Of a stretch of DNA of 64,000 nucleotides, positions 31,800 through 58,085 are shown piece after piece. Position numbers and translations under genes: made by a program. The stretch spans positions 448,001-512,000 of the forward strand of contig CAVPPB010000003.1 in the NCBI GenBank assembly GCA_963707215.1, read 5' to 3'. Positions within the stretch are counted from its first letter, which is position 1. Every line of letters starts with the position of its first letter. The notes beneath the pieces are model-generated. The model was not told where the DNA came from and ran no database searches. It saw nothing but the letters and a program-made list of their open reading frames with translations. This DNA is from an uncultured Chloroflexia bacterium (GTDB lineage: Bacteria > Chloroflexota > Limnocylindria > Limnocylindrales > CSP1-4).

Positions 31800-32026
31800 G
31801 GTCAGCGAGCCTCGCACCGGGTGCCGACCGACGGCCGGCGGGGGATGGGGAGCATCCGCCCGATGGTACGGCCGGCCCCGGGCCGGCGCAAACCTGCGCC
31901 GGGCCGGGGCCGAGAGGTGGCGCCGACGGCCCCACCCCCGCCCGCGGTCTTGGGCGGTCGATCGGCCGATGCTATCCTCGGCCGGCCCGCTGCCGGCGGG
32001 CCCGTCGCTGGACCGAGCCGAGACCG

Positions 32027-33343: not shown

Positions 33344-33583
33344 TCAGGATCGACGGGTCGCCGCTCGCCAGAGGACCGATGCGGTCCCGACGACCAGCAC
33401 GATGATGGCCAGCGGGGTATCGAGGACGACGCTCCGGAGGTCGCCGGGCAGCAGATCCGTCAGCAGGGCCGCCCCGAGGACGACCGCCACCACGAGCAGC
33501 CCCACGAGGAGGACCTCGGGCCACCCGGGCGCCCGACCCGTGGCGTCGGCGGGCCGGCCATCGTCACCAGGAGCCTGGCTCAC
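33344..33583 (-). CDS. Small 2-TM membrane protein
   Basis: Two hydrophobic helices; GTGA coupling with nnrE. Confidence 0.7.
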   Translation of the reverse strand: MSQAPGDDGRPADATGRAPGWPEVLLVGLLVVAVVLGAALLTDLLPGDLRSVVLDTPLAIIVLVVGTASVLWRAATRRS

Positions 33584-34395: not shown

Positions 34396-34427
34396 CGGGC
34401 ACAGCGTATCGCGTGCCGCAGGTGGGC

Positions 34428-35438
34428 TCACCGGGAGCTCGTCGGCAGGCGGACGACGAGCGGCTCGCCATGCCTCCGCTCGACGAGCCCGTCCCGAGCG
34501 AGCCCCTCGAGGGCCGACTCGACGGCAGCCGGGGGATGCTCGCCGATCGGCCCGCTGAGCCGCGCCCACTCGCCGTCCGGCAGGTCGCGCAACCGGTCGA
34601 CGATCCTCCCCCGCAGCCAGCGGTTGGAGCTGCGGAAGGGCACGGCGCCCTCCCGTGCAGCCGACGCTCGGCCGCGCACTGGTCGCTCCGGCCCGCCCGA
34701 CGCCCGATCGGCCTGGTCGGCTCCGGTGGCCGCCGTCCGACACCAGGGCCGGAGCGGGCAGCCCGGGCAGTCGGGCGCGGTGGACCGGCAGACCCTGGCC
34801 CCGAGATCCATCATCGCGTGCGTCCAGGCGCCGGGTCGCTCAGGAGGGACCAGCAGGTCCGCGAGCGCCTGCAGGCGACGGGGCGACGGGGCCGTCCCGG
34901 GACCGACGAGCCGGGAGATGACCCGGCGGACGTTCGTATCGACGGCCCCGACGGGTGAGCCATAGGCGATCGCGGCGATCGCCCGGGCCGTGTACGGACC
35001 GACGCCCGGAAGGCGCTCCAGCTCAAGGACCGTCGAGGGCACCCGGCCGCCGTGCTCGTCGACGATCGCGCTGGCAGCTTGCTGGAGGGCCAGGGCCCGG
35101 CGGTTGTAGCCCAGGCCGCGCCAGGCCCGAAGGACCTCGGCCGGCGATGCCGCAGCAAGCGTGGCCGGATCGGGGAAGCGGATCATGAAGGCGACCCAGG
35201 CTTCGCCGGCACGGGCGGCCTGCGTCTGCTGGGCCATCGCCTCCGATACCAGGACCGCCCACGGGTCGGCCGTCCCACGGAACGGCAGCGCTCGGTCGTC
35301 GGGCCGGTGCCAGCCCAGCAGTGCCCGACGGATGGGAACGACGGCCAGGGCGTCTCCAGCGGCGGTGTCGCCACCCGCGCGGGACGACATCGGCCGGAGG
35401 CCGGACGGCGACCGCGGCACGGCACGTCGGGCAGGCAT
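34428..35438 (-). CDS. mutY: A/G-specific adenine glycosylase (short form, no Nudix-like C-terminal domain)
   Basis: VSEAMAQQT, WRGLGYNRRA, LPGVGPYTA, VDTNV and the C-x6-C-x2-C-x5-C Fe-S motif. Alternative start at 35390. Confidence 0.9.
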   Translation of the reverse strand: MPARRAVPRSPSGLRPMSSRAGGDTAAGDALAVVPIRRALLGWHRPDDRALPFRGTADPWAVLVSEAMAQQTQAARAGEAWVAFMIRFPDPATLAAASPAEVLRAWRGLGYNRRALALQQAASAIVDEHGGRVPSTVLELERLPGVGPYTARAIAAIAYGSPVGAVDTNVRRVISRLVGPGTAPSPRRLQALADLLVPPERPGAWTHAMMDLGARVCRSTAPDCPGCPLRPWCRTAATGADQADRASGGPERPVRGRASAAREGAVPFRSSNRWLRGRIVDRLRDLPDGEWARLSGPIGEHPPAAVESALEGLARDGLVERRHGEPLVVRLPTSSR

Positions 35439-36407: not shown

Positions 36408-36551
36408 CGAGCCGCGCGATCTCACGCGGCGGTGCGCCCACGCACCGCCCGCCGGATGCCCCGTCGCCGCCGGGCCATCGGTCCCGGGACGGCGGGCCGT
36501 CCGGCCCGGCCCTACGGGACCCCTCGGCAGCATCCCGCTCCGGTGGTTGCG

Positions 36552-36591
36552 GTGAAGATTTCGAGCGATTTGACGCGCTTGAGCGGGTCGA
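36552..36591 (+). promoter_or_regulatory. Array of five (T/G)(T/C)GA-N5 direct repeats at exact 9-bp period (candidate operator)
   Basis: GTGA 36552, TCGA 36561, TTGA 36570, TTGA 36579 and TCGA 36588, just upstream of SD GGAGG (36611). Confidence 0.5.
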
Positions 36592-36620
36592 CCGCTCGGC
36601 GGACCGACGCGGAGGCAGCC

Positions 36621-37337
36621 TTGGCGCCGACCGGCCAGCATCCCGCCACCCCCGATCAATGGCTGTCCATCCGCGAGGCGGCCGACCTGATCGGCGTCTC
36701 GCCGGCCACCCTGCGACGCTGGAGCGACGCTGGGGAGATCGAGGCCTTCACGACCCCCGGCGGCCACCGCCGCTTCTCGCGCCGAGCCGTCGAGGCGATG
36801 CTCCCGGCGGCCGAGGGCACCCGGTCTGTCCGCGAGATGGGCGTCACCCCAGAACGACTGGCGCGGATCTACCACCGCCTGGCCAACCGCATGGTCGCCG
36901 ACACACCCTGGGCAAGGGCACTCGACAGCGCGCAGCGAGGGCCCTACCGCGAGCATGGCCGGCGGATCGGCAGCGCGCTCGTCTACTACCTCGATGCTCC
37001 CGACGAAGTGTCGCGGGAGGCGGCCATCGTCATCGCCGAAGAGGCCTGTCGCGAGTACGGCCGGCTGGCGGCCGAGGACGGTTCCGGCCTCGCCGAAGCG
37101 ATCGAGCTGTTCATGCGCTTCCGGATGGTCTTCCTCCGGGAGATGACCTCGCTGGCCCGGCGACACGCCCTCGACATCGTCGAGGCGACGAGCCTCCTCG
37201 AGTCCACCCACCGAGCCTTCGATCGCCTGCTCCATGCGATCCTCGTCGCCTACCAGGCGAACGCGTCCCCGGCCATCGCGGCCTCGCCCACGGACGAGCC
37301 CAGCGTCCCGGCCTCGAACGGGCGGGGTCCGCGATGA
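36621..37337 (+). CDS. Excisionase/BldC/MerR-like HTH regulator with C-terminal globin-like helical sensor domain
   Basis: WLSIREAADLIGVSPATLRRW...TPGGHRRF; all-helical C domain (YGRLAAEDG..LAEAIELF). TTG start with GGAGG 5 nt upstream. Confidence 0.8.
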   Translation: MAPTGQHPATPDQWLSIREAADLIGVSPATLRRWSDAGEIEAFTTPGGHRRFSRRAVEAMLPAAEGTRSVREMGVTPERLARIYHRLANRMVADTPWARALDSAQRGPYREHGRRIGSALVYYLDAPDEVSREAAIVIAEEACREYGRLAAEDGSGLAEAIELFMRFRMVFLREMTSLARRHALDIVEATSLLESTHRAFDRLLHAILVAYQANASPAIAASPTDEPSVPASNGRGPR

Positions 37338-38545
37338 CCGACCTGCTCGAGCGCCCCGTCGAGGGCGCGACACCCGCCGGGCTGCAGGCCCCCTGGCGGC
37401 GCTCCACCGTCGTGGCCTTCGTGGCCCACGCCCGTGACGTCGCCAGCCCGGATCGGGAAGCCTTCGCCGAGCGTCTGGCCGCCGAGGCCCCGAGCGAGGG
37501 CGCGATCGTCGTCCACACCTGCCACCGCGTCGAGCTCTACGTCGCCCCGGCCGCATGGGGCGAGCGGCCGCTGCCGTCACTGCCCGACGGCACCCGGACG
37601 CTCGACGACGTCGCCGCCGCCCGTCACCTGATCGAGGTCGCCTGCGGGCTCGACAGCGCCGTGATCGGCGAGGACCAGATCCTGCACCAGCTCCGCGAGA
37701 CCGTCGCCGAGCGCCACTCGACCTTCCCCCTTGAGCCGGTCCTCGACCGGCTCTTCCAGGCGGCGCTCCACGCCGGCCGCCAGGCCCACACCTGGTTCAG
37801 TGGCTCCCACAGGTCCCTGGCCGACGTCGCCCTCGACCTCGTCGAGGAGCGGACCGGCGCGCTCCATGACCGTCCGATCCTGGTCGTCGGGGCCGGCCGG
37901 ATGGGGCGCCTTGCCGCCTTCGCGGCGTCGCGCCGCGGCGGCCACGTCCACATCAGCAATCGACACGAGGACCGGGCCGAGGCCCTGGCCCACGACACCG
38001 GCGGTCGCGTGGTGCCGTGGGGAGGCGTCCCCCTCGACCCGGCTCCGGCGGGCATCGTGCTCGCCATCGGCGGCGCATGGCAGGTCGACCGAGAGGGCTT
38101 GACGGAGCTGCTCGAGGGCAGCGCCGTCGTGGTCGACCTGTCATCGCCGGCCGCCATCGGAGACGACGTCCAGGCGGCCCTGGCCGGACGCTACGTGTCC
38201 GTCGACGAGCTGGCCGAGACACCCGAGGCGACGCTCCCCGGCCGCCTGCGTCGACGGCTCGACACGCTCGTGTCGGAGACCGGCCGAGAGTACTGCCAGT
38301 GGCTCCGGAGCCGCGAGAGCGCACCGGCGATCCGGGCGATGGCCGCCGCGGCCGAGGAGCGCCGGCGAGCCGAGGTCGGCTGGCTCCTTCGCCGGCTGCC
38401 CGACCTGGCCGACGATGAGCAGGCGCTCGTCGAGCAGATGACCCACCGACTCGTTGCGAGCCTGCTCCACGCCCCCTTCTCGGCGCTGAACGCCGATGCC
38501 GACGGGGAGCTCGAGCGGGCCGCCCGAGAGCTGTTCGCACTGTGA
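37334..38545 (+). CDS. hemA: Glutamyl-tRNA reductase
   Basis: TCHRVELY, GLDSAVIGEDQIL, VVGAGRMG and the C-terminal LLHAP dimerisation domain. Confidence 0.9.
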   Translation: MTDLLERPVEGATPAGLQAPWRRSTVVAFVAHARDVASPDREAFAERLAAEAPSEGAIVVHTCHRVELYVAPAAWGERPLPSLPDGTRTLDDVAAARHLIEVACGLDSAVIGEDQILHQLRETVAERHSTFPLEPVLDRLFQAALHAGRQAHTWFSGSHRSLADVALDLVEERTGALHDRPILVVGAGRMGRLAAFAASRRGGHVHISNRHEDRAEALAHDTGGRVVPWGGVPLDPAPAGIVLAIGGAWQVDREGLTELLEGSAVVVDLSSPAAIGDDVQAALAGRYVSVDELAETPEATLPGRLRRRLDTLVSETGREYCQWLRSRESAPAIRAMAAAAEERRRAEVGWLLRRLPDLADDEQALVEQMTHRLVASLLHAPFSALNADADGELERAARELFAL

Positions 38546-40263
38546 CCGCCATGCGTCCCCTCCGCCTCGGCACGCGCGGCAGCGCCCTGGCGCTCGCCCA
38601 GTCTGGCACGGTGGCCGACGCGCTTCGCGCGCTGGGCGCCAAGGTCGAGATCGTCCGCATCCGGACCGAGGGCGACCAGCGGCCGCCGGACACGGCCTGG
38701 GGCGAAGGGGCCTTCGTGGGTGCGCTCGAGCAGGCTCTCCTCGACGGGACGGTCGACCTCGCCGTCCACAGCGCCAAGGACGTCCCGACCACCGAGGACC
38801 CCCGGCTGACCATCGCCGCCTTCCCGGGCCGGGAGGATCCGCGGGACGCCCTGGTGATCGGCGGCGCCGGCGGCTCGCTGGAGTCCCTCCCGGACGGTGC
38901 CAGGGTCGGGACCGACAGTCCCCGCCGATCGGCCTTCCTGCTGGCCCGACGACCGGACCTGCGGCTCCATCCGCTCCACGGCAACGTCGACACGCGGCTC
39001 CGCCGGCTCGCGTCGGGCGAGACCGACGCCCTGGTCCTGGCCGTGGCCGGGCTCACCAGGCTCGGTCTCGCCGAGCGGATCTCGGAGGTCCTCCCGCCTG
39101 AGACCGTGCCGCCGGCCCCCGGTCAAGGCTCGCTGGCGATCCAGTGCCGGTCCGACGACCAGGCGACCCTTGCCTGGGTCCGACGTCTCGACGACGCGGA
39201 CACCCGGGCTGCGGTCGAGGCCGAGCGGACGTTCCTGCGCGCCAGCGGCGGCGGCTGCCGGGCGCCCATCGGCGCGCTGGCCGAGGTCCGCGACGGGACC
39301 CTGACGCTCTCCGCCGGCTCGGCCGGGCCGACCTGGCCGGATGCCGAGCAGCCGGGTGGGCGGGCACCCGTGGTGGCCCGAGGCGAGGTCGCGGGGCCGG
39401 TCGGCGACCGCCTGGCGCTGGCTGCCTCGCTGGCGGTCCGCCTTGCCGACGAGCTCGCGAGCCACCTGCCGCCCGAGCCCGCCAGCCGAGCGCTCCATCG
39501 TGCGGCCCCGCGCGTCCTCGTGACCCGGGCGGTCGAGCAAGCCGGCCCGCTGGTCGCCGCCCTGGAGGAGCGCGGCCTGGACGTGGTCGCCGTCCCGACG
39601 ATCGAGCTCCGCCCCGCGATCCCGGGCGGCGAGCTCGACGACGCCGTCGCAGGCCTCGGCGAGTACCGCTGGGTCGTCGTCACCTCGGCCAACGGTGCCA
39701 GCGCGATCCTCGACGCCGCCGGACGCGTGGGCATCGATCCCGCCGTCGGCCGATGGGCCTCCGTCGGCAGGACCACGACCGCGGTCCTGGCTGGCAGCGG
39801 CATCGAGGTCGCCCTGACGCCGGGCAGGTCAAGCGGCGACGGTCTGGCCGACGAGCTCCCGATCTCGGCCGGCGAGCGCGTCCTGCTGGCCCGGGCCGAC
39901 ATCGCCGACGGGCGCCTGCCGGCGCGGCTGCGCGAACGAGGCGCGGTCGTCGACGAGGTCGTGGCCTACCACACCGTCGAGTCGCCCGAGGCGTCCCGGG
40001 ACCCGCTCCGCCGGGCTCTCGCCGAGGCCCGGTTCGACGCCCTGGTCTTCACCAGCGGATCGACCATCCGCGGTCTCCTGGCGCTCCTCTCACCGCAGGA
40101 GCGGCGCATCGTCCTCCGCGCGCTCGCCTGCTGCATCGGCCCCACCACTGCCCGCGAGGCCCGCGAGGCCGGCTTCGGGCGGATCGTCGAGGCGCCGATG
40201 CAGACCGCCACCGCCCTGGCCGACACGATCGTCGGCGCCGTCCGAGACGAGGTACCCGCATGA
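38542..40263 (+). CDS. hemC: Fused hydroxymethylbilane synthase / uroporphyrinogen-III synthase (HemC-HemD)
   Basis: [25 protein letters not shown] and GGGC; then VLVTRA, TSANG, AYHT, FTSGST and CIGPTT. Confidence 0.93.
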
Positions 40264-41300
40264 GCAGCAAGGTGATGGAGCGGCCCGCGCTCCTCGGTGA
40301 TCAGGCCCATGTCCCGGACCCGGCCCATCGGCTCCGCCGCCTCCGCCGGTCGCCCCAGCTGCGGGCGCTGGTCCGGGAGACGCGACCGGATCCACGCCAG
40401 CTGATCGCTCCCCTGTTCGTGCAGCCCGGACGGGCGGTCCGCGACCCCATCTCCTCGCTTCCTGGCGTCTCCCGGCTCTCCCCGGACGAGGCCGTCGCGG
40501 AGGCCCGTCGGCTTGCCGCGCTGAGGGTCGGCGGGATCATCCTGTTCGGCCTGCCGGAGGGCAAGGACGGCGACGGGAGCGGCGCCTGGATCGCCGATGG
40601 GATCATCCAGGACACGCTGGCCCGCCTCCGCGACGAGGACCCCGACCTGGTCCTCGTCGCCGACACCTGCCTCTGCGAGTACACCGACCACGGCCACTGC
40701 GGACCGCTCCTGGCCGACGGCCGGGTCGACAACGACGCCGCCATCGCCCTGCTGGCCGAGACCGCCGTCTCGCAGGCACGGGCCGGGGCCGACATCGTCG
40801 CGCCGAGCGCGATGATGGACGGTCAGGTGGCGGCCATCCGGGCCGGCCTGGACAGCGCCGGCTTCCCCGACACGGCCATCCTGGCCTATGCCGCCAAGAC
40901 GGCTTCGGCCTTCTACGGTCCGTTCCGCGAGGCGGCCGACTCGGCCCCCGCCTTCGGCGATCGGCGCGGCTACCAGCTGGACCCGGCCAACCGGCGCGAG
41001 GCGATGCGCGAGATGACCGTCGACCTCGACGAGGGCGCCGACGCGCTCCTGGTCAAGCCGGCGATGCCGTCGCTCGACATCCTGGCGGCAGCTCGAGCGC
41101 GCTTCGAGGTCCCGATCGCGGCCTACCAGGTGAGCGGCGAGTACGCCCAGATCGAGGCCGCCGCTCGGCTCGGCTGGATCGACCGCCGCCGGACCCACCT
41201 CGAGGCGCTGACCTCGATCGTCCGGGCCGGGGCGGGGATGGTCATCACCTATGCGGCCGCGGATCTCGCCGCCTGGCTGCGGGACGGGATCGAGGCGTGA
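40260..41300 (+). CDS. hemB: Porphobilinogen synthase
   Basis: [34 protein letters not shown] and YQVSGEY. Confidence 0.96.
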
Positions 41301-42583
41301 CCGTGACCACCAACGGCCGGCAGGCGACCCTCGTGGCGGCGGCCGAGGACCTCTTCCCGGGCGGGGTGAACAGCCCGGTCCGCGCGTTCCGCTCGGTGGG
41401 TCGGCGACCGATCGTCCTCGAGGCGGGCTCCGGGCCGAGGGTCAGGGACGCCGACGGGCACTGGTACGTCGACTTCATCGGCGCCTGGGGACCGGCCATC
41501 CTGGGGCACGCCAACCCCGCGGTCATCGAGGCGGTCCGGGCGGCGGCCCTCGACGGGTTCGCCCTCGGGGCGACGTCGCCGCGCGAGGTCGCCCTCGGCG
41601 CGGCCATCCGGTCGGCGATGCCGTCCCTGGAACGGCTCCGGTTCACCTCCTCGGGAACCGAGGCAGCCATGAGCGCGCTTCGGGTCGCGAGGGGGGCCAC
41701 CGGCAGGGACCTCGTCCTCAAGTTCGCCGGCGGCTACCACGGCCACTCCGACAGTCTCCTCGTCGAGGCGGGGTCGGGCGTCGCCACCCTGGCCCTCCCC
41801 GGCAGCGCCGGAGTCCCGGCCGCCATGGCCGCCGGGACCATCGTCGTGGAGTTCAACGACCTCGAGGCGGTCCGAGCGGCCTTCGCGACCTATCCGGGCC
41901 GCATCGCGGCCGTCATCGTCGAGCCGGTGGCGGCGAACGTCGGGGTGATCCCGCCGGCGCCCGGCTTCCTGGAGGGCCTCCGCGAGGTCACGGCGGCGGA
42001 CGGCGCCCTGCTCGTCTTCGACGAGGTCATCACCGGCTTCCGGGTCGCCCACGGCGGGGCGCAGGCCCGCTTCGGCATCAGGCCGGACCTGACCGTCCTC
42101 GGCAAGATCATCGGTGGCGGGATGCCGATCGGGGCCTACGGCGGGCGCCACGAGCTGATGGACCTGGTCGCCCCGGTGGGGCCCGTTTACCAGGCCGGGA
42201 CGCTGTCCGGGCATCCGATCACGATGGCAGCCGGCACGGCCACCCTGGCCATGCTCGACGGCTCCGTCTACGAGCGGCTCGAGGCAAGCGGGGCGAGGCT
42301 GGAGGCGGAGCTCGCCGACGCGGCAGAGACGGCAGGGCGGACGATCGCCATCACTCGCGTCGGGGCGCTCCTCACCGTCTTCTTCCGGCCGACCCGACCC
42401 GTCTCGAGCGCCGAGGCGATGGCCTCCGACCGGGACGCCTTCGCCCGCTTCTTCGGGGCGATGCTGGACCGCGGCATCCTCCTGCCGCCGTCGCCGTTCG
42501 AGGCCTGGTTCATCTCCCTCGCCCATGACGGCGCCGCCCTCGACGAGACGATCGCGGCGGCCCGGGAGGCCTTCGCGGCATGA
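41297..42583 (+). CDS. hemL: Glutamate-1-semialdehyde 2,1-aminomutase
   Basis: [32 protein letters not shown] and YQAGTLSG. Confidence 0.97.
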
Positions 42584-43674
42584 GCGGTGACGCGACGATG
42601 GCTGCGCCGATCAGCGGGAGCCCGACCGATCGCCGCGCCGAGCCTCGGGCGACGCGCTACCTCCGGGCCACCCGCCGCGAGCCGGTCGACACGACACCGG
42701 TCTGGTTCATGCGCCAGGCCGGCCGGGCCCTGCCCGAGTTCCGGGCCGTCCGGAAGACCGCCTCGCTGGTCGAGATCACCCGCGACCCGGCCCTCTGCGC
42801 CGAGGTGACCCTGCAGCCGGTCCGTCGGCTGGGGGTCGACGCTGCGATCCTCTTCGCGGACATCACCACCCCGCTGGCCGGGCTCGACGTGGCCTTCGAC
42901 ATCAAGCCCGGGGTGGGCCCGGTCATCGATCGGCCGGTCCGCACCCCGGCCGATCTCGCGGCCCTCCGCCCCTTCGAGCGGGATGCCCTCAAGCCGCTCT
43001 TCGAGGCCATCAGCCTCATCCGCGCCGAGAGCCCGGTCCCCCTCATCGGCTTCGCCGGCGCGCCGTTCACCCTTGCCTGCTACCTGGTCGAAGGCGGTCC
43101 CTCGCGGCAGTTCCTGCGGACCCGGACCCTGATGCGCTCGGAGCCGGCCCTGTGGACCGGGCTGATGGACCGGCTCGTCGCCATGACGATCGAGTACCTG
43201 GGTGCCCAGGTCGAGGCCGGCGCCCAGGCCGTCCAGCTCTTCGACTCCTGGGTCGGCGACCTCGGGCCGCGCGACTACGAGCGCCACGTCGCGCCGTGGA
43301 TGCGGCAGCTCTTCGACGGCCTGGTCCCGCTCGGGGTGCCGACCACCCATTTTGGCGTCGGGACCGCGGGGCTGCTGGCCCTCCAGGCCGCTGCCGGCGG
43401 CGACGTCATCGGGCTCGACTGGCACGTGACGCTGGCGGACGGCTGGGGGCTGGTCGGCGACCGCGCGGTCCAGGGCAACCTCGACCCGTCACTGCTCCTC
43501 GGCCCGTTCGAGGACGTCGCCGAAACGTCGCGCTGGATCCTGGACCAGGCCGCCGGCCGGCCCGGCCACGTCTTCAACCTGGGGCACGGCGTGCTGCCCG
43601 ACACCGACGCCGACGACCTCCGCCGGCTCGTCGACCTCGTCCACGACCACCGCCCGCCAAGGAGCGTCCCATGA
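42580..43674 (+). CDS. hemE: Uroporphyrinogen decarboxylase
   Basis: PVWFMRQAGR, DAAILFADI, QLFDSW, QGNLDP and FNLGHG. Confidence 0.97.
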   Translation: MSGDATMAAPISGSPTDRRAEPRATRYLRATRREPVDTTPVWFMRQAGRALPEFRAVRKTASLVEITRDPALCAEVTLQPVRRLGVDAAILFADITTPLAGLDVAFDIKPGVGPVIDRPVRTPADLAALRPFERDALKPLFEAISLIRAESPVPLIGFAGAPFTLACYLVEGGPSRQFLRTRTLMRSEPALWTGLMDRLVAMTIEYLGAQVEAGAQAVQLFDSWVGDLGPRDYERHVAPWMRQLFDGLVPLGVPTTHFGVGTAGLLALQAAAGGDVIGLDWHVTLADGWGLVGDRAVQGNLDPSLLLGPFEDVAETSRWILDQAAGRPGHVFNLGHGVLPDTDADDLRRLVDLVHDHRPPRSVP

Positions 43675-44627
43675 CCACCGACCCCCGACCGGCCGTGCTC
43701 CTCATGGCCTACGGCAGCCCCGATCGGCTCGACCAGGTCGAGGCGTACTACACCGACATCCGCCGCGGCAACCCGCCCCCACCCGAGCTGCTCGAGGAGC
43801 TCCTCGAGCGATACCGCGCGATCGGTGGCGGCTCGCCGCTCTCCGGGATCGTCGAGCGCCAGCGAGCCGCCCTCGAGGCCGAGCTCGCCCGACGCGGCAG
43901 CCCGGTCCCCGTCTACGCCGGCATGCGCCACATCGAGCCGCGGATCGGGGCGATGGTGGGCCGGATGGTCGACGACGGGATCGACGGGTTCGTGGCCATC
44001 GCCCTGGCACCTCAGCGCTCCTCGAACGCCGCCGGCTACCGCCGGGCTGTCGAGGGGCGACTCGCCGACGCGGAGGGCGGGCCGAGCTACCGGATCGTCG
44101 GATCGTGGCACGACGAGCCCTGCTTCATCGAGGCCCTCGCCGCGGCGACCCGGACGGCGCTCGAGCGGACCGCCGACCCGACGACGGCCCGGGTGATCTT
44201 CACCGCCCACAGCCTGCCGACCCGCGTCGTCGCGGAGGGAGACACCTATCCGCAGGAGCTGGCCCGAACGGCCGCCCTCGTGGCCGATCGGCTCCACCTC
44301 GACCGCTACGAGTTCGCTTTCCAGAGCGCCGGGAGGACCGGCGAGCCCTGGCTCGGTCCGGACCTCCGGGACGAGCTGCGGCGACTCGCCAAGGACGGCG
44401 TCTGCGAGGTCGTCGTCTGCCCGGTGGGTTTCGTGGCCGATCACCTCGAGGTGCTCTACGACATCGACATCGAGGCGCGCGCGGTCGCCGATGAGCTCGG
44501 CCTCCGCCTGGAGCGGGCGCCCTCGATGAACGACGACCCGACCTTCATCGCCGGCCTGGCCGACGTCGCCGAGCGGGCGCTCGGCGAGCTGCCGTCCGGC
44601 ACCACCACGGGCGCCGGGGTCGCCTGA
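43671..44627 (+). CDS. hemH: Coproporphyrin ferrochelatase (CpfC/HemH, monoderm type)
   Basis: LLMAYGSP, FTAHSLP, QSAG...PWLGP and GFVADHLEVLYDID. Confidence 0.95.
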   Translation: MTTDPRPAVLLMAYGSPDRLDQVEAYYTDIRRGNPPPPELLEELLERYRAIGGGSPLSGIVERQRAALEAELARRGSPVPVYAGMRHIEPRIGAMVGRMVDDGIDGFVAIALAPQRSSNAAGYRRAVEGRLADAEGGPSYRIVGSWHDEPCFIEALAAATRTALERTADPTTARVIFTAHSLPTRVVAEGDTYPQELARTAALVADRLHLDRYEFAFQSAGRTGEPWLGPDLRDELRRLAKDGVCEVVVCPVGFVADHLEVLYDIDIEARAVADELGLRLERAPSMNDDPTFIAGLADVAERALGELPSGTTTGAGVA

Positions 44628-44630
44628 GCC

Positions 44631-45839
44631 ATGACGACAGGAACCAGGCCGACGATGGCCGCGCAGACCGCTCACGTACCGACGCACCCCGGTGGACATC
44701 CCGGTGGTCACCCGGGCGGACATCCGGGCGGGCACCCGGCTGCCGTCGGGGCGGTCAAGCCGGACGGCTACGTCTACGGCCGCGCTCCGATGCTGGTCTA
44801 CTGGGAGACGACCCTCTCCTGCGGCCTCACCTGCCGCCACTGCCGGGCCACGGCGATGCCGGAGCGGAGCCCCGAGGAGCTGACCAGCGAGGAAGGCTTC
44901 GGGCTGCTCGATCGGATCCTGGGCTTCGGGCGTCCCTTCCCCCACGTGGTCTTCACCGGCGGGGATCCCCTTCGGCGCCCGGATCTCGAGACCCTCGTCG
45001 AGGCCGCCACCGAGCGCGGCATCGGCGCCTCGCTGGCGCCGGCGGCGACCGACGAGCTGACGCTGGAGCGGCTGGCCCGCCTGAAGGCGGCCGGCATCCA
45101 GACGATGTCGCTCTCGATCGACGGGTCGGACGCCGAGCGCCACGATGGCTTCCGGGGCGTTCCCGGCACCTTCGACAAGACGCTCCTGGCGGCCCGCTGG
45201 GCCCACGAGGTCGGCTTGCCGCTCCAGATCAACACCCTCATCACCGACGAGACGCTGTCCGACCTGCCGGCGGTCTACGAGCTGATGACGACGCTCGGGA
45301 TCATCCGCTGGAGCCTCTTCTACCTGATCAGCGTCGGCCGGGGTACCGACCTGCGCGAGATCACGGCGGCCGACTCCGAGCGCCTCAACGGCTGGTTCTA
45401 CGACCTGTCCAGGGAGGCCCCGTTCATCATCAAGACGACCGAGGCGACCCATTACCGGCGGGTCGCCATCCGGCGGATGACCGCGGACGGTCTCGACGAG
45501 GACGCCATCGCCGCGACCTCGGTGGGGCGCGGGTTCGGGGTCCGCGACGGCAACGGGATCATGTTCGTGGCTCACGATGGCTGGGTCTACCCGTCCGGCT
45601 TCCTGCCCGTGCGGACCGGCAACGTCCGGACCGACGACATCGTCGAGCTCTATCGGCAGCACCCCGTCTTCACCGGCCTCCGCGACGTCAGCGCCTTCAA
45701 GGGCCGCTGCGGGCGCTGCGAGTACGCCGAGGTCTGCGGCGGGTCGCGGGCCCGGGCCTTCGCCTGGACGGGCGACTACCTCGAGTCCGATCCGCTCTGC
45801 CCGTACGTGCCGCCGTCGGCGCCCGGCGCGGAGCACTGA
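44631..45839 (+). CDS. Radical SAM/SPASM protein (AhbD/NirJ-like, TIGR04053-type) with N-terminal HPGG repeats
   Basis: WETT..CGLTCRHCRA, FTGGDP, C-terminal CGRC...CGGSRARA...DPLC. Confidence 0.88.
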   Translation: MTTGTRPTMAAQTAHVPTHPGGHPGGHPGGHPGGHPAAVGAVKPDGYVYGRAPMLVYWETTLSCGLTCRHCRATAMPERSPEELTSEEGFGLLDRILGFGRPFPHVVFTGGDPLRRPDLETLVEAATERGIGASLAPAATDELTLERLARLKAAGIQTMSLSIDGSDAERHDGFRGVPGTFDKTLLAARWAHEVGLPLQINTLITDETLSDLPAVYELMTTLGIIRWSLFYLISVGRGTDLREITAADSERLNGWFYDLSREAPFIIKTTEATHYRRVAIRRMTADGLDEDAIAATSVGRGFGVRDGNGIMFVAHDGWVYPSGFLPVRTGNVRTDDIVELYRQHPVFTGLRDVSAFKGRCGRCEYAEVCGGSRARAFAWTGDYLESDPLCPYVPPSAPGAEH

Positions 45840-45861
45840 GCGGACCGGCCGGGACCCATCG

Positions 45862-47591
45862 ATGACCGTCCTCGTCGTCGGCGGAGGCATCACCGGTCTG
45901 GCGACTGCCCATGCCCTGGGCGCCGCCGGGGTGCCGACGCTGCTCGTCGAGGGGTCCGACCGGCTCGGCGGCAAGGTCCGGACCGACCGGACCGAGGGGT
46001 TCCTGGTCGAGTCCGGGCCGGACTCCTTCATCAGCTATCGGCCGGCCGGCCTGGAGCTGTGTCGCGAGCTCGGCCTGGCCGAGGCGGTCATCCGGCCGGT
46101 CGAGCCGCGGACGGTGACGGTCCGGATCGGCGAGCGGTTCGTTCGCCTGCCCGACGGGATGGGCCTGGTCCTGCCGACCCGGATGCGGCCGTTCGTGACC
46201 AGCCGGATGTTCTCGCCGCTGGAGAAGGCCAGGATGGGCCTGGACCTCGTCCTGCCGCGTCGACTCGACGGCACCGACGTCGCCGTCGGGCCCTTCCTTC
46301 GGGGTCGTCTCGGCGGCGCCCTCGTGGAGCGCCTGGCCGGCCCGCTCATCGGCGGCGTCTACGGCACGCCGATCGACGAGCTCAGTCTCGACGCCGTCGT
46401 CCCCCAGCTCCGCGAGGCCGAGCGCGACCACCGCAGCCTGCTGCTGGCCAGCCTGGCCCAGGGGCGGGCTCGGCGCAGGTCCGGCGCGCCGGCCGGCTCC
46501 CCGTTCGTCAGCCTCGCCGGCGGACTCGGCCAGCTCACCGACGCCCTGGTGGCGACGCTCTGGGACTCGCCCCAGGTGGCCCTTCGCACGGGCACGAGCG
46601 TCGTCGGCCTGGAGCGCTCCGGCGGGCACCTGGCCGCGATCCTGGCCGGCGCCGAGCGGCTGGAGGTGGACGGCGTCGTGCTGGCGTCGCCCGCGGCCGT
46701 CTCGGCCGACCTCGTCGAGGACCTCGCGCCGGACGCAGCGACCCACATCCGCTCGATCCCCCACGGCTCGACCGGCGTGGTGACCGTCGCCTACCGCGCC
46801 GACCAGCTGCCCGGTCCCCTCGTGGGGCACGGCTTCCTGGTCGCCGAGGGCGAGCCGCTCGCCATCAGCGCCTGCACCTGGTCCTCGAACAAGTGGCCGG
46901 ACCGGGCGCCCGAGGGCCACGTCCTCCTGCGGGCCTTCATCGGGTCGCCGGGCGAGCGCCTTCTCGGCCGGCCCGACCGACGACGTGCTGGCGGCCGTCC
47001 GGCGGGACCTCGAGGTGACGATGGGCGTCCACGGGGCAACCGGTCCTCGCCCGCGTGTCGCGCTTCAGCGAGTCGATGCCCCACTACACGGTCGGCCACC
47101 TGGGGCGGGTCGCGGCCGCCGACGACGCCCTCGCTGCAGTGCCGGGCCTGGTTCTGGCCGGCGCCGCCTTCCGGGGCGTCGGCATCCCCGACTGCATCGC
47201 CGGGGGCCGCGGCGCCGCCAGGGCCATCCAGGCCCACCTCGGCGGCGGCGCGACCCGGTCGACGGCCGCGACGGGGACGGGGATCGCCACGGGCGCCAGC
47301 CGCGGCCGCGATGGTGGCACTCCCGACGGCAGAGCCCCGACACCGCTCGACTCCCTGCCCGTGGGCGCCACCGGCACGGTCGCCGTCGTGGCGAGCGCCC
47401 ATCGCGACGAGCTCGCCTCCGAGGGTCTCCGCCCCGGCGTCCGGGTCGGCCTGGAGGCCGCGGCGCCCGTCGGCGGACCGCTGGTGATCTCGGTGGGGCG
47501 GGCTCGCGTCGCCGTGGCCCGCTCGGTCGCCAGGACGGTCCTCGTCGCCCCGAGTGAGCGGATCTCGGACGGCGCCCCGGCCGACCCGTGA
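45862..47591 (+). CDS. hemY: Coproporphyrinogen III oxidase (HemY/CgoX) fused to a C-terminal FeoA domain; two frameshifts at ~46978 and ~47030-47040
   Basis: VVGGGITGL, ESGPDSF, CTWSSNKWP. ORF 47055..47591 carries MPHYTVGH...GVGIPDCI followed in frame by LDSLPVG...GLRPGVRV...APVGGPLVISVGRARVAV (FeoA). Confidence 0.85.
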
Positions 47592-49576
47592 TCGCCCTGC
47601 ACCCCGGCCACCGTCCGCCCGCCGGGGAGGACCAGGCGAGCCCGGATCGCCCACTGTCCATCGCCTTCGTGGGGCGCCCGAACGTCGGCAAATCCACGTT
47701 CGTCTCGCGGGCCGGCGGGCGCTACGTCGAGACGGTCAACGCGCCAGGCACGACCGTCACCGCCGAGCGGGTCCCGGTCCGGCTGGGCGGTCAGGCCGTG
47801 GAGCTCGTGGACCTGCCCGGAACCCGGTCGCTCGTCGACACGCCGGCCGGCAGCGATCCGTTCTGGGCCCAGCTGCTGGGGACCCAGCCCGACGCCATCG
47901 TGGTCGTCGCCGACGCCGGCGACCTGGCCCGGCACCTGCCGCTGGTGCTGGCCTGCCGGGATCTCGGCCTGCCGGTCGTGCTCGCCGCGAACCTCGCCGA
48001 CGAGGCTGCCGAGGCGGGCATCGAGCTCGACGAGACGGCGCTCTCGCAGCTGCTCGTGGCGCCGGTCCACCTGACGGTCGGGCGGACCGGGCACGGGGTC
48101 GACGCGGTCATGGCCGACGCCGTGCGCCTGGCCTCCCGGCGTCGAGCCGTCCGCGAGGGCACCGCCGAGCCACGGGGTACCGTCCCGGCCCAGCCGTACC
48201 CGCCGTCGCTCGACGCACACCTGGCGGCGACCGCCCGTGACCTGGGCCACAGCCACTCGCTGGGAGCCGCGACGGTCGATGCGACCAGCATGGAGCCCTT
48301 CGTCGCCGATCGGACGATCTCGCCACGAGGTGCGGCCTCGATCCGCCTCGCCGACCTGTTGGAGCCGGAGCGCTGGCGGATCGGCGCCGAGTGGGCCGAC
48401 CGCGTGGAGTCGCGACGCGCCGTACGGGCACCCCGGCGCGAGGCCCTGACCCGACTCGCAACGGTGCCATGGCCCGGGCTGCCGCTCTTCCTCGCCGTCG
48501 CCCTCGGCTCGTTCGCCGCCATGGTCGTCGTGGGGGGCTGGCTCTCGGCCCTCCTGGCGGAGGTCTGGGCGGCGACGATCTCGCCGCTGCTGACCACGAT
48601 CATCGGGACGCTGGTGCCCCTGCCGGCGCTCGCCTCGGCGCTCGAGTGGGCGCTCGACGGCGGGCTCCTGGCGATGGTCTCGGTCGGCATCCCCTACGTG
48701 CTCGTCTTCTACGTGATCCTGGCCGCCCTCGAGGACTCCGGCTACCTGACCAGCGCGGCCGTCCTCCTCGACCGCGTCTTCAACGTCCTGGGCCTGCCCG
48801 GCCGAGCGGCGATCCCGCTCCTGAGCGCGGCCGGATGCAACGTGCCGGCCGTCTACGGCACCCGGGTGCTCCCGACGCAGCGCGAACGGCTCCTCGGCGG
48901 CTTCCTGGTCACCCTGACTCCCTGCTCCGCCCGGTCGGCCGTGGTCATCGCCGCCCTGGCCCCGGTCGCGGGGATCGGCGCGGCCTTCGCCGCCTTCGCC
49001 GTGGTGCTGGCGCTCACGCTGGGGGCCGGCCTGGCCGCCAACGCGGTCGTGCCCGGACGCCAACCGGCCCTCGTCCTCGAGCTGGCACCCCTCCGGACGC
49101 CGGTGCCGGCCAACGTCGCCCGCAAAGCCTGGCGGCGCTTCCGCTCCTTCGTCCTCGTCGCCACGCCGATCATGGTCGTCGGCTCGTTCGTCGTCGGGCT
49201 GCTCTACGAGAGCGGCCTGTGGGCAGACCTCGCGACGCTGGTCGAGCCCGTCACGATGGGCCTGCTGGGGCTGCCGGCGATCGCCGGGATCGCCATCGCC
49301 TTCGCCTTCCTGCGCAAGGAGCTGGCGCTCCAGTTGCTGGTCGCGCTCGCCATCGTCCAGTACGGCGCCGCCATGGCCGAGCCGGGCGCCTTCCTCTCGC
49401 CGGCCCAGCTGTTCGTCTTCGCGATCGTCACGTGCGTGTCGATCCCCTGCGCGGCGACCCTGGCGGCGCTGGCCGGCGAGTTCGGACGCCGCACCGCACT
49501 CGCCATGAGCGCCGCGACCGTGGGGCTGGCCCTCGGGGCCGGCGCCATCGTGGCCCGCGTCCTCGCGATCGCCTGA
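47588..49576 (+). CDS. feoB: Ferrous iron transporter FeoB
   Basis: GRPNVGKS, NAPGTTV, DLPG and NLAD G-motifs; LEDSGY, GCNVPA, PCSAR and IPCAAT in the membrane domain. Confidence 0.95.
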   Translation: MIALHPGHRPPAGEDQASPDRPLSIAFVGRPNVGKSTFVSRAGGRYVETVNAPGTTVTAERVPVRLGGQAVELVDLPGTRSLVDTPAGSDPFWAQLLGTQPDAIVVVADAGDLARHLPLVLACRDLGLPVVLAANLADEAAEAGIELDETALSQLLVAPVHLTVGRTGHGVDAVMADAVRLASRRRAVREGTAEPRGTVPAQPYPPSLDAHLAATARDLGHSHSLGAATVDATSMEPFVADRTISPRGAASIRLADLLEPERWRIGAEWADRVESRRAVRAPRREALTRLATVPWPGLPLFLAVALGSFAAMVVVGGWLSALLAEVWAATISPLLTTIIGTLVPLPALASALEWALDGGLLAMVSVGIPYVLVFYVILAALEDSGYLTSAAVLLDRVFNVLGLPGRAAIPLLSAAGCNVPAVYGTRVLPTQRERLLGGFLVTLTPCSARSAVVIAALAPVAGIGAAFAAFAVVLALTLGAGLAANAVVPGRQPALVLELAPLRTPVPANVARKAWRRFRSFVLVATPIMVVGSFVVGLLYESGLWADLATLVEPVTMGLLGLPAIAGIAIAFAFLRKELALQLLVALAIVQYGAAMAEPGAFLSPAQLFVFAIVTCVSIPCAATLAALAGEFGRRTALAMSAATVGLALGAGAIVARVLAIA

Positions 49577-49652
49577 CCCCGGCGACCGACCGCGCCACGG
49601 GTCACCCCCGCACCACCGGACGCCCCCGTCCACGAGCCACCGCTACGGCCGC

Positions 49653-50651
49653 TCAGGCCTCCGGATCGAGAGCCGCCCGGGACCAGAGCTCGGCCGCGAT
49701 GAGCTCCACGACGGTGACCTCGACGAGGGTCCGGACCAGCGGGTCGTCGGCGCCGGGCAGGGGGATGACCAGGGCCGCCCCGTCGACCGGCGGCCCGACG
49801 ACCAGGACCTCGCCCGAACGCGAGCGCACCGTCTCGACCAACGACCGGTCGTAGGCCGTGCCCGAGAGCAGGACCATCCGGGCGCCCGGCAGAGCCGTGT
49901 AGACGCCGACGTGCGCCCAGTCGCCGGCATCCCAGGCCGTCGCCGCAAGGCGAGGGCCCTCGCGGAGCATCAGGGCCGCCTGCTCGGCGGCTCCTGGCCG
50001 CGAGGCATCGCCAACGACGTGGATCGTCTCGGCTCCATCGAGGAGATCGGCGGCCGGACCGAGCCAGCCCGCCGAGCCCGCCGTGAGCCGCTCGAGGGCG
50101 TCGACGGCCGGGCGGAGGGAGGCCACGGTCGGATCGCTGCCGGCCACCCGACCTGCCGCCAGGAGCAGCGTCGCAAGCGTCGCCAGATGGGTCCGGCAGG
50201 CGACCCCCCCTGCTTCGGGCCCGGCCAGCAGCGGCAGGACGGCATCGGCGGCATCGGCCAGCCGGGAGGTCGGCTGCTCGGTGACCGCGATGACCGGCGA
50301 GGTACCACGGTGCCGCTCGGCCGCGGCCACGGTCTCAGCGGTCCCGCCCGAGGCCGAGATGGCGACGACGATCCGGCGCGGATCCGGCGGAGCGGGCGTC
50401 GGCGTCGACGCCCACTCGACCAGGACCTCGCCGCCGCCAGCCACGATCCGGGCGGCGACCGTCAGGGCGGCGAACCGCGACGAGCCCATCCCGACGAACA
50501 ACAGTGGCGGTCGGTCGCGCCCCGCCAGGACCGACTCGAGCATCGTCGACGGCTCACCGTGCCCCTCCCAGGCATCGAGCAGGCGGGCCAGCGCGGACGG
50601 CTCGTCGAGAACGTCGCGGCGCAGGGCCGCGGCCCGGTCGATGGCCCTCAC
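49653..50651 (-). CDS. Double-SIS-domain sugar-phosphate isomerase/deaminase family protein
   Basis: FVGMGSS, AISASGGTAET and AEQAALMLREG. Confidence 0.85.
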   Translation of the reverse strand: MRAIDRAAALRRDVLDEPSALARLLDAWEGHGEPSTMLESVLAGRDRPPLLFVGMGSSRFAALTVAARIVAGGGEVLVEWASTPTPAPPDPRRIVVAISASGGTAETVAAAERHRGTSPVIAVTEQPTSRLADAADAVLPLLAGPEAGGVACRTHLATLATLLLAAGRVAGSDPTVASLRPAVDALERLTAGSAGWLGPAADLLDGAETIHVVGDASRPGAAEQAALMLREGPRLAATAWDAGDWAHVGVYTALPGARMVLLSGTAYDRSLVETVRSRSGEVLVVGPPVDGAALVIPLPGADDPLVRTLVEVTVVELIAAELWSRAALDPEA

Positions 50652-56006: not shown

Positions 56007-56852
56007 TTAGCGACCGGCGCGTCGGGCCGCCCTGTGCCACGGGATGACCAGCCGCTCAGCCAAGCCGACGGCCGCGAACAGCCCCACCGAGACGACCGCC
56101 GTCAGCAGGATGGCGGCGAACACCAGGTCCGTGCGGAAGGCGTTCTGACTCACCTGCATCCAGATGCCCAGTCCCTCGATCGCTCCCACGTACTCGCCGA
56201 AGACGGCCCCGATGACCGCGTACGGCACGGCGATCCGGAGCCCGGTGAAGAGCCCCGGCAGGGCGGCCGGCCAGCGGAGCAGGCGGAGCTCCTGACGGCG
56301 GCTCGCTCCCAGGGTGCGCATGAGGTCGCTGGCGTCGGCCGGGGTCGCGGCGAAGGCGTCCAGCAGCGAGACGACGATCGGGAAGAACGAGACCAGGACG
56401 ATCACCACGACCTTGGGGGCCAGCCCGAAGCCGAACCAGACGACCAGGAGTGGAGCGATCGCCACGATCGGGATCGTCTGCGATCCGACGAGGAGCGGAT
56501 AGACCGCCCGCCTGACGGCTGCCACCCGATCCATGGCCAGGGCGGCCGCCACGGCGAGGACCAGGGCGACCGCGAAGCCGACGAGCGCCTCGGTCAGGGT
56601 GACCGCGGCGTGGCGCAGCGCCGTGTCCCGGAAGTCCCAGAGCGCCCCCAGGATCCGCGACGGCGCCGGAAGCACGATCGGGCTGACCCCGCTGACGGCG
56701 ACCCCGATCTCCCATGCCACGAGCAGCACCCCGACGAGCGCGACCGCGGGCAGCAGCCGCACCCAGCCCGTGCCGGCTCCGGACCCACCGGGGTCCTCGG
56801 CGCCAGGGTCCGGCTGGTCGTCGGGTGGCCCGGGGGGCGTCGGTGGCGTCAC
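56007..56852 (-). CDS. ABC transporter permease, NitT/TauT family (ThiX-like)
   Basis: LPAPS, QTIPIVAIAPLLVVWFGFG and GAVFGEYVG...GLG. Confidence 0.9.
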   Translation of the reverse strand: MTPPTPPGPPDDQPDPGAEDPGGSGAGTGWVRLLPAVALVGVLLVAWEIGVAVSGVSPIVLPAPSRILGALWDFRDTALRHAAVTLTEALVGFAVALVLAVAAALAMDRVAAVRRAVYPLLVGSQTIPIVAIAPLLVVWFGFGLAPKVVVIVLVSFFPIVVSLLDAFAATPADASDLMRTLGASRRQELRLLRWPAALPGLFTGLRIAVPYAVIGAVFGEYVGAIEGLGIWMQVSQNAFRTDLVFAAILLTAVVSVGLFAAVGLAERLVIPWHRAARRAGR

Positions 56853-57928
56853 GGCCGCTCCGGCAGGAATGCGTCGGTGAACAGGGCGTCGGGATCGGGC
56901 GCCTCGGCCAGCGGCCGGCCATCCGGCCCGGTCAGAAGGTCCTCCTCGAACAGGAAGGTCGTGTACGCCGCCCACATCTCGGCGGTCTGGGTGCCGACCC
57001 GTCCATCGGCGTCGGCAAGATAGCCGCCCTCCACGAGGAAGACCTGGCTGGCGAGCGGAAGGCCGGGGTCGGCCTCGAACACGCCCTGGTTCTCGGCGAT
57101 GAGGTCCGCGACCGAAGCCTCCGGGTCCTCGATGGCCGCCTCGTAGCCACGCTCGGTCGCCTCGACGAAGCGGCTGGCCACGTCCGGCTCCTCGTCGAGC
57201 CAGCGGGCGTCGCAGGCGATGACGACCTGGTAGAACTCGGGGACGCCGTGGTCGCTGAAGCGGAAGGTCCGCAGCTCGATCCCCCGTCGCTCGGCCTCGA
57301 CGCCCTCCCAGGCGCTGAAGCTGATCGAGAAGTCCGCACGGCCGGCGTACAGCGCCTCGTAGGCCGCGCTGTCGAGGGTCACGGTCGTGAACTCCCCCAC
57401 CCCGCCGTCGGCCCGGATCATCGCCCGAAGGGTCGGCTCCTCGTTGGGGTAGCCGAAGCCCGCGTAGACCCGACCGTCGAGGTCGCGGGGCCGCTCGATG
57501 TCGCCCGATGCGAGCACGGCGACCTCCGAAGCGGTCCGCTGGAGCACGGCCATGACCGAGACCACTGGCGCACCGGCTGCGGCCGCGAACGTCAGCGCGT
57601 CCTGGAAGCTGATGCCGCACTCCGCCTGACCTGCGGTCATCAACGCCTCGGGCGTGGTCCCCGTGTAGGGAAGGATCTCGAGGTCGATGCGTGCCACGTC
57701 GTACCAACCCCGGGCCAGGGCGACGTACAGGCCGGTGTGGTTGGTGTTGGGGGTCCAGTCGAGGGCGAAGCGCACGGTCGCCGGCGCCTCGGGGGGTGCC
57801 GAGGACGCGGGCGTGGCGCTCGGGGTCGCGCCCGTGCCGCAGCCGGCGACGAGGGCGACGATCAGGGCGGCCGACATCGCCCCCGGGCGACCGGAGCGGG
57901 TCGGGCTGGCGACGGGTGGATGCAGCAT
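56849..57928 (-). CDS. ABC substrate-binding lipoprotein, NMT1/THI5 family (ThiY-like)
   Basis: Lipobox VAGC, LDWTPNTNHTGLYVA and GISFQ; lies downstream of a TPP riboswitch. Confidence 0.9.
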   Translation of the reverse strand: MLHPPVASPTRSGRPGAMSAALIVALVAGCGTGATPSATPASSAPPEAPATVRFALDWTPNTNHTGLYVALARGWYDVARIDLEILPYTGTTPEALMTAGQAECGISFQDALTFAAAAGAPVVSVMAVLQRTASEVAVLASGDIERPRDLDGRVYAGFGYPNEEPTLRAMIRADGGVGEFTTVTLDSAAYEALYAGRADFSISFSAWEGVEAERRGIELRTFRFSDHGVPEFYQVVIACDARWLDEEPDVASRFVEATERGYEAAIEDPEASVADLIAENQGVFEADPGLPLASQVFLVEGGYLADADGRVGTQTAEMWAAYTTFLFEEDLLTGPDGRPLAEAPDPDALFTDAFLPERP

Positions 57929-57992
57929 GACGACTCTCTCGAGATAGCGACGCCGCCCCGGGTCCCGGGACGGCGGTCGAGTCATGCTGGCC

Positions 57993-58085
57993 TGCTCCCT
58001 ACGCCGGTACGAACCGGATCAGGTTGGCGGGTCTGTGGCGGGGCCACACTCTCAGCGCGTCGTCGCGCTCCCCGGAGGCGGTATT
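57993..58085 (-). ncRNA. TPP riboswitch
   Basis: Minus strand reads GGGGAGC...GCTGAGA...ACCC..AACCTGATCCGG....TACCGGCGTAGGGAG. Confidence 0.95.

Follow-up and report, generated by a model that had tools for sequence, protein, structure and literature searches.

Related systems

In the accessible text of two reports on bacterial ferrous iron (Fe2+) import, FeoA is described as an SH3-like protein whose binding to the N-terminal FeoB domain is nucleotide-dependent and which stabilizes its guanosine triphosphate (GTP)-bound form (PMC8980893), uptake by Shewanella oneidensis needs both FeoA and FeoB, and each of the surveyed bacterial Feo operons has a feoA gene or a FeoA-like domain (PMC8749426). 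The gene examined here, hemY::feoA, joins a HemY-family oxidase of heme synthesis to a FeoA domain directly in front of feoB; it occupies positions 45862 to 47591 (plus strand) of a 64-kb stretch of a Limnocylindrales contig (CAVPPB010000003.1, positions 448,001 to 512,000), the whole of which is called the window below. The HemY-FeoA fusion is genuine and recurrent; it occurs only within one Chloroflexota clade, whose members are Limnocylindrales-like metagenome-assembled genomes (MAGs), and has persisted there through considerable divergence.

Several described systems resemble this arrangement in part. In the FeoA-FeoB fusions, such as FeoAB of Bacteroides fragilis, FeoA is likewise tethered by a linker to a protein of the same pathway and there is no feoC, as far as the available portions of PMC8980893 and PMC8749426 describe them. 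FeoA stands at the N-terminus of FeoB in those proteins, whereas in hemY::feoA it stands at the C-terminus of the upstream heme enzyme; the fusion gene has its own stop codon (47589-47591), and feoB is a separate open reading frame (ORF) in another frame. Regulators of the DtxR/IdeR/MntR type also carry a FeoA-family domain at the C-terminus of a larger protein, but their N-terminal part binds DNA, whereas the fusion has an enzyme in that place and its domain resembles true FeoA. Neither the N-terminal helix-turn-helix nor the dimerisation domain of the DtxR type was found in hemY::feoA, the N-terminal part of which is an Amino_oxidase domain. The solved HemY-family oxidases 3i6d, 3lov and 2ivd, deposited as protoporphyrinogen oxidase, have the flavin adenine dinucleotide (FAD)-binding and C-terminal motifs in common with the fusion; they end without a C-terminal extension, whereas the fusion adds about 100 residues. 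We take 3i6d to be the Bacillus subtilis enzyme now called CgoX.

A further parallel is the heme metabolon of mitochondria, in which, according to the parts of PMC9133952 available, ferrochelatase contacts the protoporphyrinogen oxidase PPOX and the iron importer mitoferrin/ABCB10, and a direct hand-over of iron has been proposed. There, too, a HemY homologue, ferrochelatase and an iron importer are brought together; the mitochondrial assembly is non-covalent, uses unrelated transporters and has been demonstrated experimentally in that account, whereas the Limnocylindrales case consists of a gene fusion and a gene order. The accessible text of a review on the evolution of CgoX/PgoX contains neither "fusion" nor "FeoA" (PMC10740692), and in a review on how the coproporphyrin pathway is regulated, which calls iron delivery to the ferrochelatase CpfC an open question, the words "Feo" and "fusion" are both absent from the accessible text (PMC10991733). 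A literature search for the HemY-FeoA architecture returned no description of it, although it may be tallied unnamed in the figures or tables of a survey. HemY::FeoA is a new domain architecture made from known families, and its sequences are already public.

Organization and reading frame of the fusion gene

The elements of the fusion gene and the gene that follows it are as follows.

45862..46977, plus strand: N-terminal and middle part of hemY (CgoX/PgoX family), frame 1; Pfam Amino_oxidase, E 8.9e-41
46978..47037, plus strand: short hemY segment DDVLAAVRRDLEVTMGVHG, correct in frame 2 only, with one extra base at each border
47038..47240, plus strand: HemY C-terminal segment (MPHYTVGH ... 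GVGIPDCI ... AIQAHL), frame 0; NF008845
47241..47339, plus strand: linker of 33 residues, GGGATRSTAATGTGIATGASRGRDGGTPDGRAP, 79% Gly/Ala/Pro/Ser/Thr, with no in-frame start codon
47340..47570, plus strand: FeoA domain fused in frame to HemY; Pfam PF04023
47588..49576, plus strand: feoB, with G-domain, Gate and FeoB_C; Pfam FeoB_N 1.6e-31, Gate 2.7e-25, FeoB_C 5.2e-7

Translation starts at the ATG at 45862, and the resulting N-terminus, MTVLVVGGGITGL, is identical to that of the homologues. Right behind it lies the FAD-binding motif VVGGGITGL, which has the GxGxxG pattern, together with an NAD_binding_8 match (1.8e-11). The N-terminal part scores 141 bits on PF01593 against a cut-off of 19.8, the match covering profile positions 1-340 of 443 and ending at about 46971, and it is 76.6% identical over 368 amino acids to the gene of a related genome (locus L003). 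The C-terminal part of HemY matches the NCBIfam protoporphyrinogen oxidase model NF008845 (profile positions 395-465 of 468).

Frame 0 runs uninterrupted from 47019 to 47591 and encodes in succession the C-terminus of HemY, the linker and the FeoA domain. A purpose-built hidden Markov model (HMM) of HemY places the end of the oxidase at residue 74 of the piece starting at 47019, and PF04023 matches residues 97-165 of the piece 47055-47588 with an E value of 2.2e-12 and 47.3 bits (cut-off 23), covering positions 2-73 of the 74 in the profile. FeoA is thus found here not as a small stand-alone protein of about 75-85 residues but as the C-terminal part of a protein of about 575 amino acids. The stop codon of the fusion gene (TGA, 47589-47591) and the GTG start of feoB (47588) share one GTGA, so that the overlap reported in the initial annotation is confirmed, as is its description of a HemY C-terminus leading through a Gly/Thr/Ala linker into a complete FeoA domain in one frame; the linker, put there at about 40 residues, measures 33.

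The same annotation had pointed out that none of the three plus-strand frames contains a stop codon over 47240-47340. This is correct, but it is a weak argument because the DNA is rich in guanine and cytosine (G+C; 72.8% in the window) and an antisense ORF of 918 amino acids adjoins. Third-position G+C is more telling, as it peaks in frame 0 through the linker (0.88-0.90 vs 0.70-0.82 in the other phases). Since the 33 linker residues include no Met, Val or Leu, the linker has no in-frame ATG, GTG or TTG from which a separate FeoA could start; the ATG near 47311, named earlier as a possible feoA start, is in frame 1 and hence off the FeoA frame. Taken with the homologues that keep the frame, the G+C phase and the start-free linker show that the HemY-FeoA frame of the window is more than chance.

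Fused relatives among proteins and genomes

Searched against longer proteins, the 190-residue frame-0 piece gave 69 matches. The best 12 of the 69 (553-596 amino acids; from NCBI, JGI, ENA and Logan) list both PF01593 and PF04023, with 89-96% query coverage and 43-68% identity. A profile built from 11 FeoA parts (A1) matched 48 longer proteins: 36 list Amino_oxidase and FeoA, 10 FeoA only, one patatin and FeoA, and one (P0013) no FeoA. Domain assignments for PF04023 were precomputed for 12 of the 69 matches of the first search and 47 of the 48 of the second. The pairing of Amino_oxidase with FeoA, which the initial annotation had proposed to look for among known domain architectures, was therefore returned by both searches. 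When 49 proteins were rechecked with purpose-built HMMs, 32 proved to be full HemY plus FeoA, 16 were fragments in which FeoA comes after an incomplete HemY, and one was of another kind. A search of representative proteins yielded 3617 matches at E <= 1e-3, about 6-8 of which cover both domains, most of these being fragments; the full-length fusions have apparently been absorbed into general HemY clusters, and this search therefore gives no useful family size. Where public names are given, full-length proteins are called protoporphyrinogen oxidase, and some of the fragments go by Fe2+ transport system protein FeoA; since each name covers only one of the two parts, the combined architecture is not flagged in the databases.

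A scan of species-representative genomes with profile A1 produced 25 loci. In eight of them (L001-L008), all Chloroflexota MAGs and four of them Candidatus Limnocylindrales, the C-part of HemY shares a single open frame with FeoA. The C-part plus FeoA of the window is 67.8% identical to that of L001, and the FeoB proteins of the two are 81% identical, which makes a member of the class Limnocylindria the most likely source of the window; on TIGR00437 the window FeoB scores 293.6, below the cut-off of 315.65. Eight other loci (L009-L013, L015, L019 and L021), which are Chloroflexota MAGs except for L009 (Myxococcales), have a separate FeoA-like ORF in front of feoB. These stand-alone FeoAs share the motifs L..G....V...L...G...G...P.GGP...GRAR.A with the fused domain, are followed directly by feoB and show 36-52% identity to the window FeoA piece (tblastn, best segment), but they are small separate genes, with no hemY within their 8-kb flanks. 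The remaining members of the scan are six feoA-feoB pairs of other phyla, two DtxR-type regulators (L016 and L020) and one feoB with a FeoA-like match of only 27 residues (L023). Protein and genome counts are not all independent, as P0223 and L002, P0232 and L006, and P0235 and L004 are evidently the same genes. The initial annotation had been prepared to give up the fusion if feoA had a start of its own and no homologue were fused; instead, eight loci keep both parts in one frame, and no linker contains a Met. A six-frame hmmsearch with the FeoA HMM of the clade itself found a single FeoA domain in the 64-kb window and likewise a single one in every locus from L001 to L008.

Domain anatomy and constraint

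The intact homologue P0001 scores 260.2 on the HemY family model TIGR00562 (cut-off 97.85) and its residues 3-453 match positions 8-462 of the 470-residue chain of the solved oxidase 3i6d (E 3e-87). HemY is therefore complete, and FeoA is an addition that replaces nothing. Across 21 sequences the linker varies between 13 and 39 residues and between 42 and 88% Gly/Ala/Pro/Ser/Thr; it is unconserved and free of Met, and it keeps the frame throughout. Compared with the PDB, a profile of 11 fused FeoA domains matched 10 chains, all of them FeoA or FeoA-like (3mhx at 2e-8; also 2lx9 and 6e55), and no DtxR-family chain was among the matches at E <= 0.01. Nine fused domains have 28 near-invariant columns; at 15 of these, eight separate FeoAs from related MAGs are near-invariant too and carry an identical residue.

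Ratios of nonsynonymous to synonymous substitution rates (dN/dS) were calculated pairwise by the Nei-Gojobori method for five pairs. They amount to 0.21-0.31 for the last 70 HemY codons, to 0.61-1.47 for the linker, and, for the FeoA part, to 0.23-0.43 in the four closer pairs and 0.74 in the most distant one; between the window and L001 the HemY C-part and FeoA give 0.25 and 0.38. Because synonymous sites are strongly biased, these values are rough, but their ordering is clear and gives two constrained domains on a nearly free tether, with FeoA under purifying selection and the linker nearly neutral.

As to its substrate, the oxidase would, judged by context, be the coproporphyrinogen III oxidase CgoX. 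The operon contains ferrochelatase and an AhbD-like radical S-adenosylmethionine (SAM) gene, and the best solved relative is 3i6d; the window ORFs scanned gave no Pfam match to a coproporphyrinogen decarboxylase of the HemF or HemN type.

The heme operon and feoB

Upstream of the fusion gene, the window contains the following genes.

36543-37337, plus strand: MerR-family regulator gene, the end of which reaches 4 nucleotides into the hemA start
~37334-38545, plus strand: hemA, read from its translation
38542-40263, plus strand: hemC-hemD fusion, porphobilinogen deaminase and uroporphyrinogen-III synthase in one 573-residue ORF; Pfam/NCBIfam
40260-41300, plus strand: hemB; Pfam/NCBIfam
41297-42583, plus strand: hemL; Pfam/NCBIfam
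42580-43674, plus strand: hemE; Pfam/NCBIfam
43671/43677-44627, plus strand: ferrochelatase gene cpfC; Pfam/NCBIfam
44631-45839, plus strand: radical SAM/SPASM protein, TIGR04053, 449.7 bits against a cut-off of 395

In the window, feoB is the last gene of a tightly packed same-strand heme run that begins at hemA, and the ORF coordinates show several 4-nucleotide overlaps (ATGA/GTGA) between neighbouring genes. The order cpfC, radical SAM gene, hemY::feoA, feoB is conserved: cpfC and the radical SAM gene precede hemY in all seven loci with upstream sequence, in five of which hemE comes before them, and feoB directly follows the fusion gene in the window and in seven of the eight fused loci, with the 4-nucleotide overlap in the window and in six of these seven. 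As this order is kept in the relatives together with feoB, Fe2+ import is part of the heme operon of the clade. The link between iron import and heme synthesis drawn by the initial annotation is thus upheld for the gene context, feoB closing a heme run that contains ferrochelatase and overlapping the fusion gene by 4 nucleotides; the physical complex also envisaged there is weighed below.

The MerR-family gene may belong to the heme/feoB operon or control it. On the AhbD "heme b synthase" model the radical SAM protein reaches 298 bits, short of the cut-off of 500, and it may replace ChdC/HemQ as coproheme decarboxylase. HPGG repeats at its N-terminus (HPGGHPGGHPGGHPGGHP) are seen again in relatives (L002 and L004-L008). 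The hemC-hemD ORF is a second gene fusion within the operon of hemY::feoA. A scan of 36800-50200 for promoter and terminator consensus sequences found nothing, which is uninformative in such G+C-rich DNA.

Frame breaks in the window copy

The window HemY is not encoded in one uninterrupted frame, whereas its relatives are intact. DNA alignment with L001 and L003 revealed one extra base at 46977/46978 (CCCGAC[C]GACGAC) and another at 47037 (GGGG[C]AACC), and a frame HMM based on codon-position G+C has the frame change at 46978 and again at 47033. In all three hemY segments the G+C codon-phase signal is preserved. A coarse G+C-phase scan had presented the hemY breaks as the only frame switches of the window, a view overturned by lpdA and by a finer scan. 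The lpdA gene (dihydrolipoamide dehydrogenase; 30357-31817, minus strand) is split by about four frame changes within ~31150-31560; its N- and C-terminal parts share one frame, and the indel cluster between them is the second such cluster in the window. The finer codon-phase HMM flags switches without a nearby stop at 790, 892, 1297, 4939, 32795, 33525, 44744, 58237, 58349 and 61378, some of which are probably ordinary gene boundaries. The switch at 33525 lies below an ORF (33583-34839, minus strand) that has YjeF_N only, without the usual kinase half.

Conserved genes are also broken in the relatives, namely the radical SAM gene and hemY in L004, hemE in L005 and feoB in L013, so that indel errors seem to be common in the assemblies of this clade. 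The two extra bases in hemY are probably consensus errors of the assembly, given the comparable clustering of frame changes in lpdA. The caution in the initial annotation that this region is error-prone was justified, and it applies elsewhere in the window as well, as in lpdA.

Origin of the fusion

A quick HemY tree with 88 rows places all 32 full fusions inside one group of 34 (Shimodaira-Hasegawa-like approximate likelihood-ratio test, SH-aLRT, 88), the other two members being P0016, a 422-residue fragment from a 1383-nucleotide contig, and P0014 (498 amino acids), neither of which has FeoA. The tail of P0014 is linker-like and lacks FeoA, and a search for an out-of-frame FeoA behind it gave no tblastn match in any frame of the loci or the window. 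The HemY tree fits a single gain of FeoA with later loss or truncation. A quick FeoB tree, computed without L005, L009, L013, L015, L016, L018, L020 and L022, also groups the eight fused rows (SH-aLRT 89), but this grouping is not used as support; the careful FeoB tree omitted L014 and L017 in addition.

Proposed function and alternative explanations

A conserved gene fusion is a classical genomic sign of joint function. On the strength of the architecture and gene order, hemY::feoA probably encodes one bifunctional HemY-linker-FeoA polypeptide whose FeoA module serves the adjacent FeoB. The product, with the two extra bases discounted, would be a protein of about 575 amino acids made of an FAD-dependent oxidase, a flexible linker (13-39 residues in the family) and an SH3-like FeoA module. 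This module would be the FeoA of the adjoining FeoB and would do the usual work of FeoA, with nucleotide-dependent binding to the G-domain and stabilization of its GTP state; in the window and the fused loci examined it is the sole FeoA found beside the feoB that overlaps it by 4 nucleotides. FeoB activity would then be made in a fixed ratio to the heme pathway, and HemY would be held at the site of Fe2+ entry, either as a by-product or through selection. A complex prediction for FeoB residues 1-292 with the FeoA domain scored 0.00 and 0.00 against a mark of 0.32, without folded controls, and speaks neither for nor against such binding.

Several observations weigh against this proposal. The count of FeoA domains covers the 64 kb of the window and 6-16 kb per locus, and a further feoA elsewhere in these genomes is possible. 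In L005 (8261-9344) an intact fusion is followed by only about 50 feoB codons and then by an ORF resembling alpha/beta-hydrolases, a remnant that reflects either a feoB deletion or a misassembly. In P0013 the FeoA part is internally shortened and scores 28 bits compared with 80-117 for the others, and P0014, which is without FeoA, nests in the careful HemY tree (41 rows) beside P0001 and P0002, the closest relatives of the window gene, with support of 100/95; the FeoA part can therefore be lost or truncated. An approximately unbiased (AU) test rejects the fused rows as an exclusive HemY clade, as expected with P0014 inside. The careful FeoB tree, the backbone of which is without resolution, needs two changes, one change being found in 32% of the bootstrap trees, and the AU test gives p 0.026 against a grouping of the fused rows, at a log-likelihood difference of 1.6. 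If both extra bases in the window were real, translation from 45862 would run off-frame to 47487 and yield no fusion protein. Finally, a HemY-type oxidase that makes H2O2 would be an awkward neighbour for incoming Fe2+.

Three other explanations compete with a FeoA module in the service of FeoB. That the fusion itself is an artefact, a sequencing error having erased the hemY stop or shifted the frame between two separate genes, can practically be dismissed: the region does contain indel errors or mutations, and at 72.8% G+C a long open frame is nothing unusual, but eight independent loci and dozens of protein clusters drawn from four sources show the same architecture, with varied linkers free of stop codons and Met, and the ATG at 47311 does not lie in the FeoA frame. 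It is also unlikely, if far less so, that the window copy alone is a pseudogene, in which the extra bases are true mutations, the fusion protein is not made and FeoA is silent. Two +1 changes 60 nucleotides apart that do not restore the frame would suit a pseudogene, and so would the coarse G+C-phase scan of the 64 kb, which showed no other stop-free switch on the same strand until the finer scan overturned it. The gene is, however, otherwise well conserved (67.8% identity to L001, with the low dN/dS values given above for that pair), its codon-phase signal is whole in all three segments, and the denser cluster of frame changes in the core gene lpdA, with the further candidates of the finer scan, points to local consensus errors.

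The third alternative accepts the fusion but takes the module off FeoB duty, as a regulatory, oligomerisation or membrane-targeting SH3-like domain within HemY, in the manner of DtxR. The Pfam FeoA family does include the C-terminal domain of DtxR-type regulators such as L016 and L020, the fusion is retained in L005 beside a mere remnant of feoB, and 13 near-invariant columns of the fused domains are not shared by the separate FeoAs. Set against this are the PDB profile matches, all to FeoA chains and none to a DtxR-family chain at E <= 0.01; feoB as the next gene in seven of eight loci, with the 4-nucleotide overlap in six of those seven; the finding of no second feoA beside these feoB genes; and the feoA gene or FeoA-like domain reported for every bacterial Feo operon identified in the survey cited above (PMC8749426, as far as its available text goes). 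A module acting only within HemY is accordingly quite improbable, and a FeoA module serving the adjacent FeoB remains the preferred explanation.

A stronger proposal extends this explanation to a heme metabolon at the membrane: HemY::FeoA would dock on the FeoB G-domain and form a complex with CpfC, to which Fe2+ would be passed as coproporphyrin III is released. Gating of the FeoB GTPase by FeoA would in that case match iron import to porphyrin supply. This complex, close to what the initial annotation had in mind, is doubtful; if true, it would give bacteria a covalently wired equivalent of the mitochondrial complex of mitoferrin, ferrochelatase and PPOX. Through the fusion, the enzyme acting immediately ahead of ferrochelatase is linked to the accessory protein of the main Fe2+ importer, within an operon extending from hemA to feoB. 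The route of iron to bacterial ferrochelatase is an open question, and the fusion offers a clonable system for testing whether import and heme synthesis are coupled; it also allows one to ask how FeoB is affected by a FeoA that is attached to a 50-kDa enzyme.

Other observations

One further protein, P0251 (322 amino acids, from a 1392-nucleotide contig), combines patatin with FeoA and may be another FeoA fusion. Elsewhere in the window, a heliorhodopsin gene (1423-2346, minus strand; Pfam PF18761, E 7.9e-93) adjoins a tRNA-Arg gene (2359-2434), and an NMT1/THI5-like gene (56852-57985) has a thiamine pyrophosphate (TPP) riboswitch upstream of it (57978-58084, minus strand; 65.3 bits, gathering score 54.3).

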